From Escherichia phage HP3.2, in sequence record OP978391.1: a stretch of DNA of 64,000 bases; one strand, written 5' to 3'. Made by a program: the position numbers and the translations under genes. The notes under the pieces were generated by a model, which saw only the letters and a list, made by a program, of their open reading frames with translations, did not search any database and was not told where the DNA came from. Shown in pieces: positions 34,728 to 50,112 of this stretch. Position 1 is the stretch's first letter. Each line of letters starts with the position of its first letter.

Positions 34728-35114
34728 TTATTCGAGGGAAAGAAGATATTTACTCTGGTAAAACATCCCAGTAATATCATCTATCGTGCTTTGAATGGCT
34801 GGAGGCATTTCTTTATAAATGCTGTTAGATTGGTCTAGTATGCGATCAATCATTTTAATTGTGTCGGTAGGAAGTTTACTGGCATCTGGAATAGAAGGCG
34901 TGTATTTTCTACCAGAATACCCCAAATATTGCTCACCAAATTTATCAATCAAATCTGGCAACTCAGAGAAAATAAAATCGTATGCTTTGTGTCTAGCATA
35001 ACTTTTAGTTTCAAAATGCGCAGAATGAAAATAAGCTTGTGCAGCCATTAATAAACCTAAGTATTCATCTGCCTTTGAAGGTTTTCCACTTTGTGAAAAG
35101 TCGCTGAATTTCAT
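34728..35114 (-). CDS. Hypothetical protein (128 aa), rI.-1-like by position
   Basis: ORF immediately downstream of rI. Confidence 0.5.
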
Positions 35115-41453: not shown

Positions 41454-41455
41454 TT

Positions 41456-41512
41456 TATCCCTCCAAGTAACTGTGAATATACTATCACAATTCTAGGAGA
41501 AAGTAAACAACT
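41456..41512 (-). promoter_or_regulatory. T4-type early promoter for denV
   Basis: GTTTAC (plus 41503-41508) -17 nt- aTAGTAT in the 59-bp e-denV gap. Confidence 0.55.
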
Positions 41513-43328: not shown

Positions 43329-43723
43329 CGTGATTCCTTAACAAATTTCATAATTTCATCAAATTCATACGCAGCAAGTTTAAGCTGATGTTCCTTTTTA
43401 ATCTTTTTACACTGTGCTTTCCAATCACGTACGCGTTTACGATAATGCCTTCCTTGATACCAGTATCCTACCCAATTTACGGGTACTAATAAAAGTGGAA
43501 CTATTAATGGAAGAATTAGCATTAACACAAGTATTTCGCCAGAATCAATATCAGTCATAACATCTAAAACACCTCCAATAATCAATAGAATTACAAATGA
43601 TATGAGTATAACAGGACCTATTAACACATCAGTAGAAATTATCTGACGCTTTAATTCATACTTCAACGGTTTACTTGGAAGGTATAGTGATGGCTTTGAC
43701 ATATTCTCTACATTCCTTAACAA
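43310..43723 (-). CDS. Membrane protein (137 aa)
   Basis: Two hydrophobic helices (VLIGPVILISFVILLIIGGVL; ILVLMLILPLIVPLLLVPV), basic C-terminus. Confidence 0.5.
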   Translation of the reverse strand: MLRNVENMSKPSLYLPSKPLKYELKRQIISTDVLIGPVILISFVILLIIGGVLDVMTDIDSGEILVLMLILPLIVPLLLVPVNWVGYWYQGRHYRKRVRDWKAQCKKIKKEHQLKLAAYEFDEIMKFVKESRCKSQN

Positions 43724-44279
43724 ATTTTTCTAGTAATAAATCACTTTCAAAATTGGGATTTTCTACAAATTTATCAAAAAGATCATCAACAATAGTTAAG
43801 ATATTCTTTTTACTAAGAATACGTTTATTTTCATGCTTCGTTTCAGAATCAACTATAAGAGTAAAGAAATATTTCTTGCCCTGAAATTTTACAGTAGTAT
43901 CAATATAAAATAAATTTGACTTTTGTAAATTACGTTTAAACCATGCGTCACTTAAACTATAAACACCGAGATAATCAAAATCGTCGTTTAAATAACAAAC
44001 CGTCCATTCAGGAGAAATGAAATCAGTAAATTCAACATCAAAATCACACGTCAATGAATGAATTGATTCAATACTGTTAATGAGTATTCCAGGACGTATT
44101 AAAGACTTTTTACCTCTAGAAAATCTTCCGGAAAGGCTTTCATCAGTTTCATATGAAGACCCCCAATAGTAATTACGTCCTTCTGCCATGCGTTTAAGAG
44201 CATTTAGTAATTGGTCTGGAACATCAACCTGTCTTTGAAACTCTTCAAACATTGAATTGAAATCACTTTGCATTTTCAT
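43671..44279 (-). CDS. Hypothetical protein (202 aa)
   Basis: ORF following the terminator at 44300-44317. Confidence 0.5.
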   Translation of the reverse strand: MKMQSDFNSMFEEFQRQVDVPDQLLNALKRMAEGRNYYWGSSYETDESLSGRFSRGKKSLIRPGILINSIESIHSLTCDFDVEFTDFISPEWTVCYLNDDFDYLGVYSLSDAWFKRNLQKSNLFYIDTTVKFQGKKYFFTLIVDSETKHENKRILSKKNILTIVDDLFDKFVENPNFESDLLLEKFVKECREYVKAITIPSK

Positions 44280-44321: not shown

Positions 44322-44915
44322 TTATTTCAGAGAATTAATATATTCCTGAACATCGGCAGAGGTAGTTTCAACCCCAGAAATATTACCATTAAAGGTTTCA
44401 ACTCGAGCAAGAGTATCTTCAATATCAACCTTAGTCAGTGCTGCAATTTCAACTACATCATCAGCAGTACTAATTCCAAGGGCATTCGCTGCACGAGTTT
44501 CACGGATATATTCCAATTTAACCGCAAGTTCTTGACGAGCATCATCTAACTCAACTACTTTCTTGGCGATTTCAATTCGCATTTCAGCATAACCGTCAGC
44601 CTTAGTAGTCAACTGCTCAGCTGTTCGACGATATAGTAAACCGAGTTTAGCATGCATTGTTACATCTTGGCCTTCGGAAAGAAGTTTACGAATTTCACGC
44701 TCTTTTGATTCGGCCTGTCGATTCTTTTCGATAACAAGTTCACGAATACGTTTTTCTTCGTTAATAGATTTAACAGAAGCAGTTTTTAGATCTTTAATTT
44801 TATCAAGTAGTTTTGCTGCTGCAGCAGTATACTGTTCTTCGACAGATAGATTTTTAGCCATAGCAGAACCAAGTTTAGTGCGAATAAACTCAACAATTTT
44901 CTTCAGTGTGTTCAT
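44322..44915 (-). CDS. Coiled-coil protein (197 aa)
   Basis: Extended heptad-rich helical sequence. Confidence 0.5.
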
Positions 44916-45385: not shown

Positions 45386-45509
45386 GGCAGGGATGGGCAA
45401 TTAAAGGATAGGATAATATATTATAAAGGGTATAAACTAAATGATGCCTAGAGAGGTCCAGAAAGGCCTAGATACCAAAAAGCCCTATCATTTAGATAGG
45501 GATTTAAAA

Positions 45510-46073
45510 TTATTTACCTAGTTTACTTATTATAGCTTCTGCAGCAGCTTTTAGCTTAGATGCAGTGTTAATACGATTTTTAATTTCAGTATACGCATCG
45601 CCAAGAACATCAAGGCTATCAGAATAAACACTTACACTATTGCGTTCGCTATTTGAAATAGAACCTTTAGTTTTGCGGTCAAAATCGGTGTACACGTCTT
45701 GAAGATCGCGGGCTGCCTTCTTTGCATCATCCAATGCATCAAGAGCTTTATTCAAAGCATTAACGTATTTTTTAGTGTCGAACATATTCTTAGAAATTTT
45801 AACAGGTGCGCGTTCAGGAGTAGCTAACACAGATTTAGGAACCTGAGCGCCAGATGCCAATTTCTTAGAAATTTTGAAAAATGCTTTATTGAATTTATTT
45901 TCTTGACTCATTGTAAAAGAACTATTATCGATGTTGTACATTTCAATAGCTTTAGCTTTCCACTTAAGAAAATCGCCGCGGTCTTTTGGGTCCAATTGGA
46001 AGAATACTTTAGTAAGATCTGCTTCAGATGGTAATTTTGCTGCTTCGGTTAAAAATTCGGCATAGGTTTTCAT
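45510..46073 (-). CDS. Internal-protein-like capsid-targeted protein (187 aa)
   Basis: N-terminus MKTYAEFLTE matches the T4 internal-protein capsid-targeting sequence (MKTYQEFIAE) with an LxE protease site. Confidence 0.6.
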   Translation of the reverse strand: MKTYAEFLTEAAKLPSEADLTKVFFQLDPKDRGDFLKWKAKAIEMYNIDNSSFTMSQENKFNKAFFKISKKLASGAQVPKSVLATPERAPVKISKNMFDTKKYVNALNKALDALDDAKKAARDLQDVYTDFDRKTKGSISNSERNSVSVYSDSLDVLGDAYTEIKNRINTASKLKAAAEAIISKLGK

Positions 46074-46168
46074 TTAAAATCCTTGAAATAATTTATCGGT
46101 TGGTTATTAATTATTTATTACTTTGTTACTATCCGTAACAGCGTTATCCGAGTGATTCAAACTAAAAA

Positions 46169-46192
46169 GCCCCAACCTTTCGGTCGGGGCTA
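46169..46192 (-). terminator. Intrinsic terminator
   Basis: GCCCCGACC-GAAA-GGUUGGGGC hairpin followed by UUUUU on minus-strand RNA; same element repeated at 46725-46748. Confidence 0.65.
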
Positions 46193-46198
46193 AGAATG

Positions 46199-46672
46199 TC
46201 ATTTGATTTGTTTAGCAGACCAAATGCGGTCTTTAATAATTTTTTGGATGTCTTCAACATACTCAAGAGAGTGAACATGTGGATTATCTTTGAAACTATA
46301 AGCACGGGCTAACTTTTGGCCTTCGGTTTTGATTACTAAAAGCTCTTTAAGGATAGCTTCATATTTAGCGATAATTCCTTTAACGATATTTTTTTCTTGT
46401 GCCGCTTTAGGATCTGCTTTAGGAGCAGGTTTACCCGAAGCCTTTGCAAAAGCAGCGCCAGTAGCAACTAAACTTTTCCAGGCCATACTAACTGCATTTC
46501 CCGTAAATCCTTCCGCTTTCATGTCGCGTGCAAACTGGAATCGCGATTCATCAGAAGCATCTTTATAGGAATATTTACCCGCGGCAATGGCAGCTTTTGC
46601 AACAGCTTGAATTTCGGTGCTAGATGCTTCATTTAACACCGCTTCATTTAAAAATTGAGTATATGATTTCAT
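46199..46672 (-). CDS. Internal-protein-like capsid-targeted protein (157 aa)
   Basis: Start at ATG 46672 gives MKSYTQFLNEAVLNE (CTS-like); paralogous N-terminus to 45510-46073; listed ORF extension is read-through. Confidence 0.6.
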   Translation of the reverse strand: MKSYTQFLNEAVLNEASSTEIQAVAKAAIAAGKYSYKDASDESRFQFARDMKAEGFTGNAVSMAWKSLVATGAAFAKASGKPAPKADPKAAQEKNIVKGIIAKYEAILKELLVIKTEGQKLARAYSFKDNPHVHSLEYVEDIQKIIKDRIWSAKQIK

Positions 46673-46724
46673 CTTATTTCCTATTTTAATTTGTAGATTT
46701 AATATACTAATATTTATACCAAAA

Positions 46725-46748
46725 AGCCCCAACCTTTCGGTCGGGGCT
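46725..46748 (-). terminator. Intrinsic terminator after the stable-RNA region
   Basis: GCCCCGACC-GAAA-GGUUGGGGC + UUUUU on minus-strand RNA. Confidence 0.65.
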
Positions 46749-46749
46749 A

Positions 46750-47055
46750 AGCCTTGCGGCAACCTTGTCGGGGTTCCACCTGCTAAGGCAAGTGTTTGTA
46801 CGAAACGCCGGGATTCGAACCCGGTTATTAAGTAGTTGACGCTACTCAATATTTTTAAAAGGCCATATCTCGACCATATCCGAACGTTCCGTCAAAAACG
46901 CTACTCGGCTTACGGCAAAGATATTTCCTCGAATCGATAATTCGGTGCGCCGTTTCTGCTGTGATAGTAAAGAGCCAGAACACAGTAAAACTGTGGGAGG
47001 AAACTATACTCCAGGGAACATCAGTCCGACGACTTACCGGTAGCGACCCGGTTTC
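46750..47055 (-). ncRNA. Small stable RNA region with tRNA-like 3' domain (resembles T4 tRNA-cluster-associated species RNAs)
   Basis: No ORF over ca. 300 nt; minus strand has acceptor CGGAACG/CGUUUCG plus canonical T-arm CCGGG-UUCGAAU-CCCGG (46800-46891) and local hairpins CACAG-UUUUA-CUGUG, CGAAU-UAUCG-AUUCG. Confidence 0.45.
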
Positions 47056-47406
47056 TTAATATTCTTTTAAAGAATCAATATATTCACGGCGTTTACGCCA
47101 CAAATCAATTGCTTCATACGCGGATTCAGCATTTCGAATTAGCCGGCATTTATGTAAAGACTTATGATTTTGATATTGTGTAGATAACGGAATTGTATCT
47201 AAAAGGTCTTTACGATCAAAATATTTGTAACCATCTAAACCAAATGAACGATTTTTGAGAAATTGCCAATGACCATATTCGTTTTCGACATAAACATAAT
47301 CTGCATGCTGATAAAGCAAATTAATTACACGTTCAGAAATAACAGTATCATTATGATTAAAATAGAATGTTAAATCATGAACTACTAAATAAACATTACC
47401 TTTCAT
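47056..47406 (-). CDS. Hypothetical protein (116 aa) within the tRNA region
   Basis: ORF between tRNA-Arg and the stable-RNA region. Confidence 0.5.
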   Translation of the reverse strand: MKGNVYLVVHDLTFYFNHNDTVISERVINLLYQHADYVYVENEYGHWQFLKNRSFGLDGYKYFDRKDLLDTIPLSTQYQNHKSLHKCRLIRNAESAYEAIDLWRKRREYIDSLKEY

Positions 47407-47424
47407 ATTTTCCTCACTTATAAT

Positions 47425-47500
47425 TGGTCGAGGCAGTAGGGATCGAACCTACGACCTAGGACTTAGAAGGTCCTTGCTCTTCCTTCTGAGCTATGCCCCG
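47425..47500 (-). tRNA. tRNA-Arg (anticodon UCU)
   Basis: Hand-folded cloverleaf: acceptor CGGGGCA/UGCCUCG, anticodon loop CUUCUAA, T-loop UUCGAUC, encoded CCA. Confidence 0.8.
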
Positions 47501-47504
47501 TAAT

Positions 47505-47580
47505 TGGGGTGACCGATGGGAGTCGAACCCATGACTACGAGAATCACAATCTCGAGTTCTACCAACTGAACTACGGCCAC
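47505..47580 (-). tRNA. tRNA-His (anticodon GUG)
   Basis: Acceptor GUGGCCG/CGGUCAC, anticodon loop UUGUGAU, T-loop UUCGACU, CCA. Confidence 0.75.
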
Positions 47581-47694
47581 ATTAATACCTACTCCAACAA
47601 TCAAGATGTCTTCACACGAAATTAAGAGAAGAGTGATCAGTTCAACCCCTATAATCGCGTCAAGTAGATATTAATGTGACAGTTGTCACAAATT

Positions 47695-47769
47695 TGGCGG
47701 ACGTGATAGGATTCGAACCTATAACCAATCGCTTAACAGGCGATCGCTCTGCCATTGAGCTACACATCC
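47695..47769 (-). tRNA. tRNA-Asn (anticodon GUU)
   Basis: Acceptor GGAUGUG/CACGUCC, anticodon loop CUGUUAA, T-loop UUCGAAU, CCA. Confidence 0.75.
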
Positions 47770-47773
47770 AAAT

Positions 47774-47860
47774 TGGTGGGGAGTGGTGGAGTCGAACCAC
47801 CCGAGTCGCAATGACAATGAATTTACAGTCCACACCGCTACCTCTACGGGATAACTCCCC
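47774..47860 (-). tRNA. tRNA-Tyr (anticodon GUA), long variable arm
   Basis: Acceptor GGGGAGU/ACUCCCC, anticodon loop CUGUAAA, variable arm GUC-AUUGC-GAC, T-loop UUCGACU, CCA. Confidence 0.75.
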
Positions 47861-47869
47861 AAATTAATT

Positions 47870-47944
47870 TGGTGGCCCTGGGTGGAATTGAACCACCATC
47901 TGGCGATTATGAGTCGCTTGCTTGAACCTTCCAGCTACAGGGCC
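47870..47944 (-). tRNA. tRNA with CAU anticodon (Ile2-type by T4 analogy, or elongator Met)
   Basis: Acceptor GGCCCUG/CAGGGCC, anticodon loop CUCAUAA, CCA; identity (Ile-lysidine vs Met) not resolvable from sequence. Confidence 0.7.
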
Positions 47945-47945
47945 T

Positions 47946-48021
47946 TGGTGCTGATTGACGGAATCGAACCGCCGACCTTCTCATTACAAGTGAGTTGCTC
48001 TACCTACTGAGCTAAATCAGC
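47946..48021 (-). tRNA. tRNA-Thr (anticodon UGU)
   Basis: Acceptor GCUGAUU/AAUCAGC, anticodon loop CUUGUAA, T-loop UUCGAUU, CCA. Confidence 0.8.
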
Positions 48022-48026
48022 AAAAC

Positions 48027-48116
48027 TGGCGGAGGCGATAGGATTTGAACCTATGAGTCGCCGGAGCGACTGCCGGTTTTCAAGACCGGTGCATTAAACC
48101 ACTCTGCCACGCCTCC
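48027..48116 (-). tRNA. tRNA-Ser (anticodon UGA), long variable arm
   Basis: Acceptor GGAGGCG/CGCCUCC, anticodon loop CUUGAAA, long variable arm, T-loop UUCAAAU, CCA. Confidence 0.8.
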
Positions 48117-48119
48117 AGT

Positions 48120-48192
48120 CTCCGTGGCAGGATTTGAACCTACGACATTCTGCTCCCAAAGCAGACGCTCTACCAAACTGAGCTACACGGAG
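48120..48192 (-). tRNA. tRNA-Pro (anticodon UGG), CCA not encoded
   Basis: Acceptor CUCCGUG/CACGGAG, anticodon loop UUUGGGA; 3-nt spacer to tRNA-Ser suggests a dimeric Pro-Ser precursor. Confidence 0.8.
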
Positions 48193-48202
48193 TAAATTAA
48201 AT

Positions 48203-48276
<74 letters not shown>

Positions 48277-48281
48277 AAATT

Positions 48282-48368
48282 TGGTGCGAGAAGTGGGACT
48301 CGAACCCACAAGGAAATCATTCCGCAGCATTTTAAGTGCTGTGCCTTTACCAATTTGGCCATTCTCGC
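48282..48368 (-). tRNA. tRNA-Leu (anticodon UAA), long variable arm
   Basis: Acceptor GCGAGAA/UUCUCGC, anticodon loop CUUAAAA, long variable arm, T-loop UUCGAGU, CCA. Confidence 0.8.
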
Positions 48369-48369
48369 G

Positions 48370-48442
48370 CTGGGAATAAAGGACTCGAACCTTTGCATCC
48401 TGGAATCAAAATCCAGTGCCTTACCAACTTGGCTAATTCCCA
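48370..48442 (-). tRNA. tRNA-Gln (anticodon UUG), CCA not encoded
   Basis: Acceptor UGGGAAU/AUUCCCA, anticodon loop UUUUGAU, T-loop UUCGAGU; abuts tRNA-Leu. Confidence 0.75.
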
Positions 48443-48539
48443 ATTATTAACAAAGGCTCTTAAGCAAGAACCCTTGATGATAGAGGGTATTAATCAGTGC
48501 GATATGAGTTAATAATAACAAATAATTCTTAAAGCATAT

Positions 48540-48827
48540 TTACCATTTATAATAATACATATTTACGATGCATTCAAGACCCAAAGGATTCTTGAAAATA
48601 TCATATTCAAGAGGACCTTTTTCTGTTTCAATAAAGAAATCAAAATTTACTGTATTAAATTTACGTTCTTCCTTCACTAATTTAACTTGAGAAGATGAAC
48701 GGTCAATGTAAACCTTTTCAACTTCAAAACATGTTAAAATGCCATAATCATCAATCAAAGCTTTAGCCGCGTCTTGATCATATTTATATCCATTTTCAAT
48801 GGATGATACTTTCGCATAAAGAATCAT
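48540..48827 (-). CDS. Hypothetical protein (95 aa)
   Basis: ORF upstream of the tRNA cluster. Confidence 0.5.
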   Translation of the reverse strand: MILYAKVSSIENGYKYDQDAAKALIDDYGILTCFEVEKVYIDRSSSQVKLVKEERKFNTVNFDFFIETEKGPLEYDIFKNPLGLECIVNMYYYKW

Positions 48828-48829
48828 TA

Positions 48830-49228
48830 TCAGCCTTCATCAACAATAGTGTGAGTATTAGCATTTACGATTTGCCACCAATCAAAGCGATTAGAATCCA
48901 TCGGTTTGTTTTCATTTTCTTTGATAATGTCACGGAGTTCATCTTCAGAGAATGCTTTAGCAATTAAATCGGTATACCCACCACGGGGATAATAATTATC
49001 ACCTGCAAACAAAAGGAAATTTACCTTCCCGGAAGCAACATATGCTTCCTTAGGATACTTGTTTCCTGCGTGGTCAACCACTTCAATATAACGGTAAGGA
49101 ATATCGGTTCTTTCAACCCATTGCCATGCCGCCGCAGGGGAATCGAAAGCATCTACACCTAAACGATTATCTTCATCTTTAGACGGATTATTTTCGTAAT
49201 CCGCATATACATAATATTCAACGTTCAT
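48830..49228 (-). CDS. Hypothetical protein (132 aa)
   Basis: ORF. Confidence 0.5.
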   Translation of the reverse strand: MNVEYYVYADYENNPSKDEDNRLGVDAFDSPAAAWQWVERTDIPYRYIEVVDHAGNKYPKEAYVASGKVNFLLFAGDNYYPRGGYTDLIAKAFSEDELRDIIKENENKPMDSNRFDWWQIVNANTHTIVDEG

Positions 49229-49413
49229 TATTCACCTTTAGAAATTTTATCCATAACAATAGCAATTAAACCAATTAAAAATGCTACTACAAGTGAAAAC
49301 ACATTTTCTGCTGTAGTCAATAATCCACATATAAATCCAACAAACATTGAAAAACTAAAAGCGGAAGCAGAAATTGCAATAGCAACATTTCGAATTAATT
49401 CACAACGTTTCAT
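49228..49413 (-). CDS. Small membrane protein (61 aa)
   Basis: Hydrophobic: AIAISASAFSFSMFVGFICGLL and VVAFLIGLIAIVM. Confidence 0.45.
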   Translation of the reverse strand: MKRCELIRNVAIAISASAFSFSMFVGFICGLLTTAENVFSLVVAFLIGLIAIVMDKISKGE

Positions 49414-49424
49414 TTTATTCTCCT

Positions 49425-49471
49425 CAGTAGTAGATAGGGTAATAGTATCACTACCCTATCTAAAAGTAAAC
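49425..49471 (-). promoter_or_regulatory. T4-type early promoter with hairpin-embedded -10
   Basis: GTTTAC (plus 49466-49471) -17 nt- ATACTAT; -10 flanked by inverted repeat GGGTA...TACCC. Confidence 0.5.
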
Positions 49472-49705
49472 TTATTTTTTACGAAAAATTGATTTATTTT
49501 CTGCTGCCCATTTTTCAATAACTGCAGCAGGACCAGTAACAACAATTTTATCACCGTAATCTTCTGCGGCGAGTTGACCGAAATTATCTAATGCATCACG
49601 AAGAACTCCATGAGGCATTTCACCCATTTTATCTTTCTTGCCAATGTAAATAAACTCAACTTTTACATCAGCAGTTTCAGCAATAAATTCTTGGTAAGTT
49701 TTCAT
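49472..49705 (-). CDS. Internal protein (IPI-position), capsid-targeted, 78 aa
   Basis: Start at MKTYQEFIAE, identical to the T4 internal-protein capsid-targeting sequence; sits between tRNA region and 57B as ipI does in T4. Confidence 0.6.
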   Translation of the reverse strand: MKTYQEFIAETADVKVEFIYIGKKDKMGEMPHGVLRDALDNFGQLAAEDYGDKIVVTGPAAVIEKWAAENKSIFRKK

Positions 49706-49734
49706 TTTGATTTCCATTTGGTTTTGTTTTGATA

Positions 49735-49795
49735 AGGTAATAGTATCACAACTAAAACCCTATGTAAACAACTTTGTGAAATTATTTTAAATCTT
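49735..49795 (-). promoter_or_regulatory. T4-type early promoter
   Basis: GTTTAC (plus 49765-49770) with downstream GGTAATAGTATCAC -10 region. Confidence 0.5.
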
Positions 49796-50039
49796 CTAAT
49801 CGTTTCTTCATCTTAGAACCATTTTTAGCAATTTCTCCTGCATCGGAGCATAATGCTAAAAGTGCTTTAACTTTAGTTTGGTCTCCTTTAAAAGATGAAG
49901 GATCGACCGCAGCAGCAAGTTCTTTAATACGAGAGAAAAGACGCTCAGCTTCAGCTAAAGCCATTCCAAGCTTTACTTCCATACCGTGGGAAGATTCAGT
50001 GATAGTAGTTTTTGTAGCAAACTCTTTGAAAGTTTTCAT
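49782..50039 (-). CDS. Internal-protein-like small protein (85 aa)
   Basis: N-terminus MKTFKEFATKTTITE is CTS-like with an ITE site; own early promoter. Confidence 0.5.
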   Translation of the reverse strand: MKTFKEFATKTTITESSHGMEVKLGMALAEAERLFSRIKELAAAVDPSSFKGDQTKVKALLALCSDAGEIAKNGSKMKKRLEDLK

Positions 50040-50059: not shown

Positions 50060-50112
50060 TTGATGAGGTAATAGTATCACTACCTCATCAGTATGTAAAC
50101 AACTTTGTGAAA
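50060..50112 (-). promoter_or_regulatory. T4-type early promoter with hairpin-embedded -10
   Basis: GTTTAC (plus 50095-50100); -10 flanked by inverted repeat GAGGTA...TACCTC. Confidence 0.5.

Follow-up and report, generated by a model that had tools for sequence, protein, structure and literature searches.

Phage T4 carries three internal proteins, known as IPI, IPII and IPIII, for which targeting to the capsid, cleavage, ejection and inhibition of GmrSD are established. Each of the three (Ip1, Ip2 and Ip3) inhibits a distinct GmrSD subtype, and their role is one against type IV restriction. The class has been known since the 1970s to 1990s, and two further members, Ip5 and Ip6 of RB15, T2, PST and other T-even phages, were reportedly described in a Krisch-laboratory survey by Repoila and colleagues in the EMBO J of 1994. 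Mutagenesis of the IPIII leader, the capsid-targeting sequence (CTS), has assigned residues 4 and 7 to capsid targeting and residues 8 and 10 to processing (review PMC9026906). Here we describe four genes, which we call A to D, in a stretch of 64,000 nucleotides from Escherichia phage HP3.2 (OP978391.1; the whole stretch is referred to below as the window). Over the 5.6 kb around these genes, Escherichia phages HP3 and HP3.1 are 100% identical to the window, and about 30 further Tequatrovirus genomes reach at least 99.5% identity. The HP3 genes share with those of T4 IPI–III the CTS, the (L/I)xE site, a small basic mature form and variable loci next to 57B; they differ in that the mature sequences have no detectable similarity to those of T4, and in that the site of A and B is empty in T4. 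More distant comparisons can be made with P1 DarA, DarB and Hdf and with the propeptide-bearing ejection proteins of phiKZ and SPN3US, which are reportedly also packaged in the capsid and delivered with the DNA, against restriction or for host takeover; their sequences, targeting signals and phage lineages are unrelated to those of the HP3 genes, and no homology is implied.

The preliminary description of this DNA had placed four genes with internal-protein leaders in the window, and all four open reading frames (ORFs) were found, on the minus strand, at the positions and with the N-termini that it gave. All features of the two loci described below lie on this strand. Gene A (45510–46073, 187 residues) starts with MKTYAEFLTE followed by AAKL, and gene B (46199–46672, 157 residues) with MKSYTQFLNE/AVLNE/ASS, which has a double LNE site; both encode unnamed proteins, and both leaders are conservative variants of the T4 CTS. 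Gene C (49472–49705, 77 residues) starts with MKTYQEFIAE, exactly the ten-residue leader of T4 IPII and IPIII, followed by T. Gene D (49782–50039, 85 residues) starts with MKTFKEFATKTTITE followed by S; this leader is of the IPI type, resembling the longer T4 IPI leader and terminating in ITE. The targeting residues are present in all four (Y4 and F7 in A, B and C, F4 and F7 in D), and cleavage sites are predicted at LTE10 in A, LNE10 and LNE15 in B, IAE10 in C and ITE15 in D. All the determinants identified in the IPIII leader (positions 4, 7, 8 and 10) are thus present in A, B and C, while D has its ITE at positions 13–15. The pattern MK[ST][YF]x[EQ]F has four matches in the six-frame translation of the window, all of them ORF starts on the same strand, compared with a mean of 0.02 in shuffled sequences. 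A 128-residue minus-strand ORF at 34728–35114 matches the leader pattern loosely, has no proper (L/I)xE and probably carries no CTS. No Pfam match above threshold was obtained for any of the four proteins.

We consider it likely, with a probability of roughly 0.78, that all four genes encode T4-type internal proteins that work as follows. Each protein would be made as a precursor whose first 10–15 residues are the CTS; by means of an aromatic fourth residue and Phe as the seventh, this would dock the protein on the gp22 scaffolding core during prohead assembly, and the gp21 prohead protease would cleave (L/I)xE sites behind their Glu. In its mature, basic form the protein would remain among the packaged DNA and be ejected with it into the next host, where it would act before phage gene expression; the most likely action is that it binds restriction enzymes of the modification-dependent kind (type IV) and blocks them. 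The genes would form self-contained cassettes, each consisting of a promoter, a conserved leader, a variable body and a terminator, and the cassettes may be exchanged at four sites (vs.8/denV, denV/e, e.8/rnaC and 57B/trna.4) by way of the shared leaders, the stem-loop promoters and the terminator tails. That A, C and D are packaged and cleaved in HP3 is our inference, as are the cellular targets of A, B and Ip5. The earlier suggestion that these genes are candidate injected anti-defence effectors fits the identification of D and C as Ip5 and Ip6, the action of Bas37_0260 on McrBC and the particle-associated homologue of B in phage fD1, all described below, as well as the properties of T4 Ip1–3.

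Judged by their sequences, C and D are the already named and published Ip6 and Ip5 of the classical ipI locus, where they lie between stem-loop promoters at the same locus and in the same order as in RB15, T2 and PST, with no material difference. Homologues of gene C are annotated as ip6 or ipVI in VR7, PST, GiZh and fHoEco02 (93.5% identity to the ipVI genes of PST and GiZh), and in PHROGs the gene falls in phrog_8111, “internal virion protein”. The most informative homologue is in the BASEL phage Bas37 (KarlGJung, MZ501089), which has the same four genes: its A, B and D proteins are identical to those of HP3, and its C protein, Bas37_0260, is identical at 76 of 77 positions, with the single substitution I21T. 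The gene bas37_0260 is at the ipI locus and bears a packaging signal; it was needed on E. coli K-12 BW25113 but dispensable on a strain without McrA, McrBC and Mrr, and the sensitivity of the knockout was specific to McrBC (HIDEN-SEQ preprint, bioRxiv 10.1101/2025.11.20.689424). The preprint neither names this gene Ip6 nor discusses A, B or Ip5. Given the near identity of the two proteins, we regard gene C as a probable McrBC inhibitor. At 1770–2609 of the window a T2/T6-type beta-glucosyl-hydroxymethylcytosine-alpha-glucosyltransferase replaces T4 beta-gt. With glucosylation of the T2/T6 type, some of the hydroxymethylcytosine stays free of glucose, and in this form it is what McrBC cuts. An injected McrBC inhibitor therefore fits HP3, and not the fully glucosylated T4. 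We note that the RefSeq HP3 record starts Ip6 (gp110) four codons upstream (MEIK-MKTYQ; window 49706–49717); this is probably wrong, because the downstream ATG is preceded by a GGAA Shine-Dalgarno-like sequence and gives a start that matches all the other leaders.

The ip5 gene of RB15 (GenBank Z35082) is 100% identical to gene D, and that of T2 98.8%; in PHROGs, gene D is assigned to phrog_3499, “internal head protein”. Gene D is also identical to bas37_0261. Insertions in that gene carried an approximately 4-fold cost in the uropathogenic E. coli strain CFT073 (log2 fold change −2.09, adjusted p ~0), and were neutral on K-12 and in the data sheets of two other uropathogenic strains, CFE299 and one assigned by position to CFE331 (bioRxiv 10.1101/2025.11.20.689424). 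T2 carries both Ip5 and Ip4 and is nevertheless restricted by the GmrSD systems of ECOR17 and ECOR21, which are therefore unlikely to be targets of Ip5.

Genes A and B lie at a different locus. Compared with T4 they amount to a clean insert of 1.2 kb, located between e.8 and rnaC, and the cassette (45472–46729) has direct repeats, GGGCTTTTTGGTAT, at both ends (46716–46729 and 45472–45485). These repeats are the T-tails of intrinsic terminators, of which there are three at the locus: one at 46725–46748, 3′ of rnaC and 5′ of B, with the same hairpin in T4; a second copy of this hairpin at 46168–46191, between B and A (repeat family D4, the copies being 93% identical); and a different hairpin at 45483–45501, 3′ of A. 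The insertion point of gene A is directly after the T-run of the B terminator, and A carries its own terminator. The RB51 record describes the B gene as “flanked by a 34 bp imperfect direct repeat”. Gene A matches 164 phage records and gene B 511; in all those inspected, including the expert annotation of RB51, the products are called “hypothetical”.

The site between e.8 and rnaC is empty in T4, PST and T2, occupied by B alone in RB51, fD1, PYPS2T and Bas43, and occupied by B and A in HP3, Bas35–37, DalCa and fPS-65. A census anchored on the conserved e.6 gene in 14 IMG/VR T4-like contigs found a CTS gene between e.8 and rnaC in 10 of the 14. The leaders at this site have a characteristic FL(N/T)E form, in many cases with the (L/I)NE site doubled, and each genome sampled has several CTS genes distributed over up to four sites, many of them of unnamed types. 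The region between e.8 and rnaC is a third variable cassette locus for internal-protein genes, with its own leader type and its own late promoter. Two further CTS variants, one of 205 residues (MKTYNEFLNESVLNEAG...) and one of 127 residues (MLTYAEFLNRNTITESVLTEAG...), occur at this site behind the same conserved late promoter (IMG/VR loci L026 8464–9081, L027 6593–6976 and L028 8465–9082). Two simple ideas about gene content were rejected: that B is toxic without A, since many phages carry B alone, and that every phage needs one large basic internal protein, since there is none in PYPS2T or in loci L021 and L029.

The two loci have different types of promoter, a point absent from the preliminary description, which had called all four genes early-promoter-driven. 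This holds for C and D, which like the next gene are each preceded by a hairpin-embedded promoter of the form GTTTAC-N17-GATACTAT, corresponding to the PeSL (early promoter in stem-loop) cassette described by Arbiol, Comeau and Krisch. The Ip5 promoter (50071–50100) has the same sequence as that upstream of T4 ipI, and the PeSL-type promoter of Ip6 is at 49740–49769 (repeat families D6–D8). It does not hold for A and B, which have late-type motifs. Gene B has a perfect T4 late promoter, TATAAATA, at 46711–46718, 38 nucleotides upstream of its start codon. In other phages this promoter is kept 34–48 nucleotides upstream of the first gene of the locus, in RB51, fD1, Bas43, PYPS2T and the IMG/VR loci, even where the coding body is different, and in the fPS-65 record it is annotated as “predicted late promoter”. 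Upstream of gene A no sigma-70-type promoter was found, and the only candidate is a late-promoter-like motif with one mismatch, AATAAATA, at 46112–46119, which may serve A. In locus L024 the B homologue has this same AATAAATA upstream of it in place of TATAAATA, and AATAAATA is also found upstream of the B homologue in locus L020.

The predicted mature form of A has 177 residues, a mass of 19.6 kDa, an isoelectric point (pI) of 9.5 and 32 Lys and Arg residues, which is close in bulk properties to T4 IPIII* (20.4 kDa, pI 9.65, 33 Lys and Arg residues); that of B is about 15.5 kDa with a pI of 9.6. The AlphaFold2 model of B (predicted local distance difference test score, pLDDT, 75) is all-helical, with a disordered leader, a small N-terminal domain, a linker rich in Lys, Pro and Ala, and a long helical hairpin. 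The model of A has the same layout, again with a disordered leader, at a pLDDT of 59. A Foldseek search of the PDB and BFVD with the B model returned only B itself; the A model was too poor to search with. An exhaustive HMMER search with mature A found no relatives beyond T4-like phages, and the homologues of gene A are all at least 88% identical except for one 29% relative, which has a CTS-like leader, MITFNEFLNE-SEMINE. Homologues of gene B in Yersinia and Klebsiella phages, with identities as low as 38%, keep its leader, and there the N-terminal domain is conserved in proteins that have a different C-terminal domain.

The mature sequences had been described as unrelated to one another. This is correct for C compared with D, and for C and D compared with A and B. 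It does not extend to A compared with B: direct comparison of these two with hhalign and BLASTP gave nothing significant, but they belong to the same PHROG (2280), have a common architecture in the predictions, and find a weak link in the 205-residue variant. We conclude with moderate confidence that A and B are very divergent alleles of one superfamily specific to this locus.

Several observations weigh against the assignment of all four proteins to the internal-protein class, or limit it. Evidence from virions is confined to B, and comes from the homologue in phage fD1 rather than from HP3 itself: g140 of fD1 (157 residues, about 98% identical to B) is particle-associated according to liquid chromatography–tandem mass spectrometry, in a list which also has Ip4 (g129) and IpI (g146) and from which the product of the neighbouring e.8 is absent (PMC8309999, Table S3). 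This list of 113 proteins is permissive, including rIIA, 57A and a homing endonuclease (PMC8309999), so that it is supportive of B and not decisive. The papers on fPS-65 and Isf-Pm2 gave no identifications in their virion proteomics. N-terminal processing is for all four proteins a prediction from the motif. The Pfam and Foldseek searches gave no fold or family match that would suggest how A or B works. The promoters of C and D are of the early type only, which is unusual for genes of head proteins but is shared with T4 ipI, whose promoter is the same. Insertions in B had no phenotype in K-12 or in three data sheets for uropathogenic strains, and in fPS-65 the B homologue (L005 1836–2174) is frameshifted to 112 residues, a natural indication that B is dispensable there. 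Finally, in the Bas37 screen A scores as essential, which sets it apart from all known internal proteins.

This last point requires closer attention. Gene A is identical to bas37_0243, which HIDEN-SEQ classed as “Essential”, a result its authors do not discuss: insertions were found at one of 48 TA sites, with a mean of 0.2 reads, compared with 300–600 reads in the neighbouring genes (bioRxiv 10.1101/2025.11.20.689424). B, Ip5 and Ip6 were non-essential in Bas37 on the K-12 strain without restriction systems, as were T4 ipI, ipII and ipIII in the same screen (bioRxiv 10.1101/2025.11.20.689424). The call is weakened in three ways. Essentiality calls that contradict the literature were also made for hoc, inh, segE, uvsW, segC and wac; A is missing from PYPS2T, a phage of the Bas37 species in which IPII, IPIII and Ip4 are lacking as well and so cannot compensate; and gene A is present in only the 164 records mentioned above. 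The options are a requirement conditional on K-12, a morphogenetic role like that of IPIII, or an artefact specific to the locus. The data may point beyond a dispensable accessory gene, which the preliminary description had missed. We raise tentatively, and as a possibility that is on balance unlikely, the proposal that A is a capsid-targeted protein indispensable on E. coli K-12. It may be an injected factor acting against an unrecognised K-12 barrier that T4 avoids by other means, or a part of the head core that the phage has come to require. If A is indispensable, the internal-protein class would have in it a first member that is essential, or essential depending on the host; e.8/rnaC would be the third locus of the class, and A, B and the 205- and 127-residue alleles would form one fast-evolving superfamily with FL(N/T)E leaders.

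A related alternative is that A, and perhaps B, is mainly a component of the head core or a DNA-condensing protein and is not directed against host defence, being a basic protein loaded by its CTS that aids scaffold assembly or DNA neutralisation, as IPIII does in part. The resemblance of A to IPIII in size and charge is consistent with this, as are the late-type promoters of A and B, unlike those of C and D, and the finding that T4 ipIII mutants assemble heads at half the rate, give a 40% burst and form polyheads (PMC9026906). HP3 and Bas37 both lack IPII, IPIII and Ip4, the near absence of insertions in A points the same way, and B has no host-specific phenotype. On the other side, PYPS2T is viable without A and without any of these three proteins; T4, T2 and PST lack both A and B; A occurs together with IPIII or Ip4 elsewhere (loci L017 and L020); and T4 ipIII itself was non-essential in the HIDEN-SEQ screen, whose miscalls of hoc, inh, wac and others reduce the weight of its verdict on A. 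We think this explanation doubtful.

It is considerably less probable that the leaders are mere recombination handles, or that some of the proteins, C and D especially, act unpackaged inside the producing or infected cell. The early-type promoters of C and D would suit such a role, IPIII expressed by the host without its CTS still rescues infection, and the 5′ ends of the genes are repeats at the DNA level (families D3 and D5). However, IPI of T4 is packaged at about 360 copies (PMC9026906), and its gene has the same promoter. Moreover, the targeting and processing residues are conserved as protein across bodies that have diverged beyond recognition, and the fD1 homologue of B is listed as particle-associated. 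Chance resemblance of the N-termini, for which nothing speaks beyond the shortness of the motif, can be dismissed, given the four matches against 0.02 expected and the presence of the same leaders on dozens of unrelated bodies at these loci in other phages.

On the favoured assignment of all four genes to the internal-protein class, two were already named, and what is new is the recognition of A and B as putative CTS proteins, the link between HP3 gene C and the McrBC inhibitor, e.8/rnaC as a third locus and the unexpected classing of A as essential. For therapy directed against extraintestinal pathogenic E. coli, HP3 and phages close to it are candidates, and internal proteins act as first-response determinants of host range. 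For type IV restriction in clinical strains, the HP3 gene list now comprises a predicted anti-McrBC protein (Ip6), Ip5 with its fitness effect specific to CFT073, and two previously unrecognised putative packaged proteins. Re-labelling A and B in the 164 and 511 genomes matched would improve many annotations, and the unexplained essentiality call for A is a cheap and testable lead.

The gene order of the region is as in T4: denV, e, nudE, e.2–e.8, rnaC/rnaD, the tRNAs, trna.2–4, the ipI locus, 57B, 57A and gene 1. The two loci flank the tRNA cluster, as had been described; it has 11 genes, the T4 set with His, Asn and Tyr in addition, and segB is absent. The preliminary description also noted correctly that the arrangement differs from T4 in that only 59 bp (41454–41512) separate denV from e, where T4 has ipII and ipIII. 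This empty site keeps the PeSL that precedes ipIII in T4, and HP3 has none of ipI, ipII and ipIII. Homologues of the T4 stable RNAs rnaC (46799–46937, 99% identical) and rnaD (46944–47056, 79% identical) were found; no Rfam family matched over this region. Between rnaD and tRNA-Arg there is a 116-residue ORF (47056–47406) at a position that is empty in T4, which the RB51 annotation describes as similar to RB69ORF150c. The glucosyltransferase gene differs from the RefSeq HP3 copy by a one-codon deletion, and coordinates around it are offset by 423 nucleotides from NC_041919, so that the window and that record do not agree everywhere. In its taxonomy line the RefSeq HP3 record says Rosemountvirus; the phage is a Tequatrovirus. 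The Bas37 homologues of e.5 and e.6 (window 43671–44279 and 44322–44915; bas37_0239 and bas37_0240) were strongly depleted in uropathogenic CFT073 with log2 fold changes of −3.62 and −6.49 and not on two other isolates; the text of the preprint is silent on them, and they are candidate host-specific factors.

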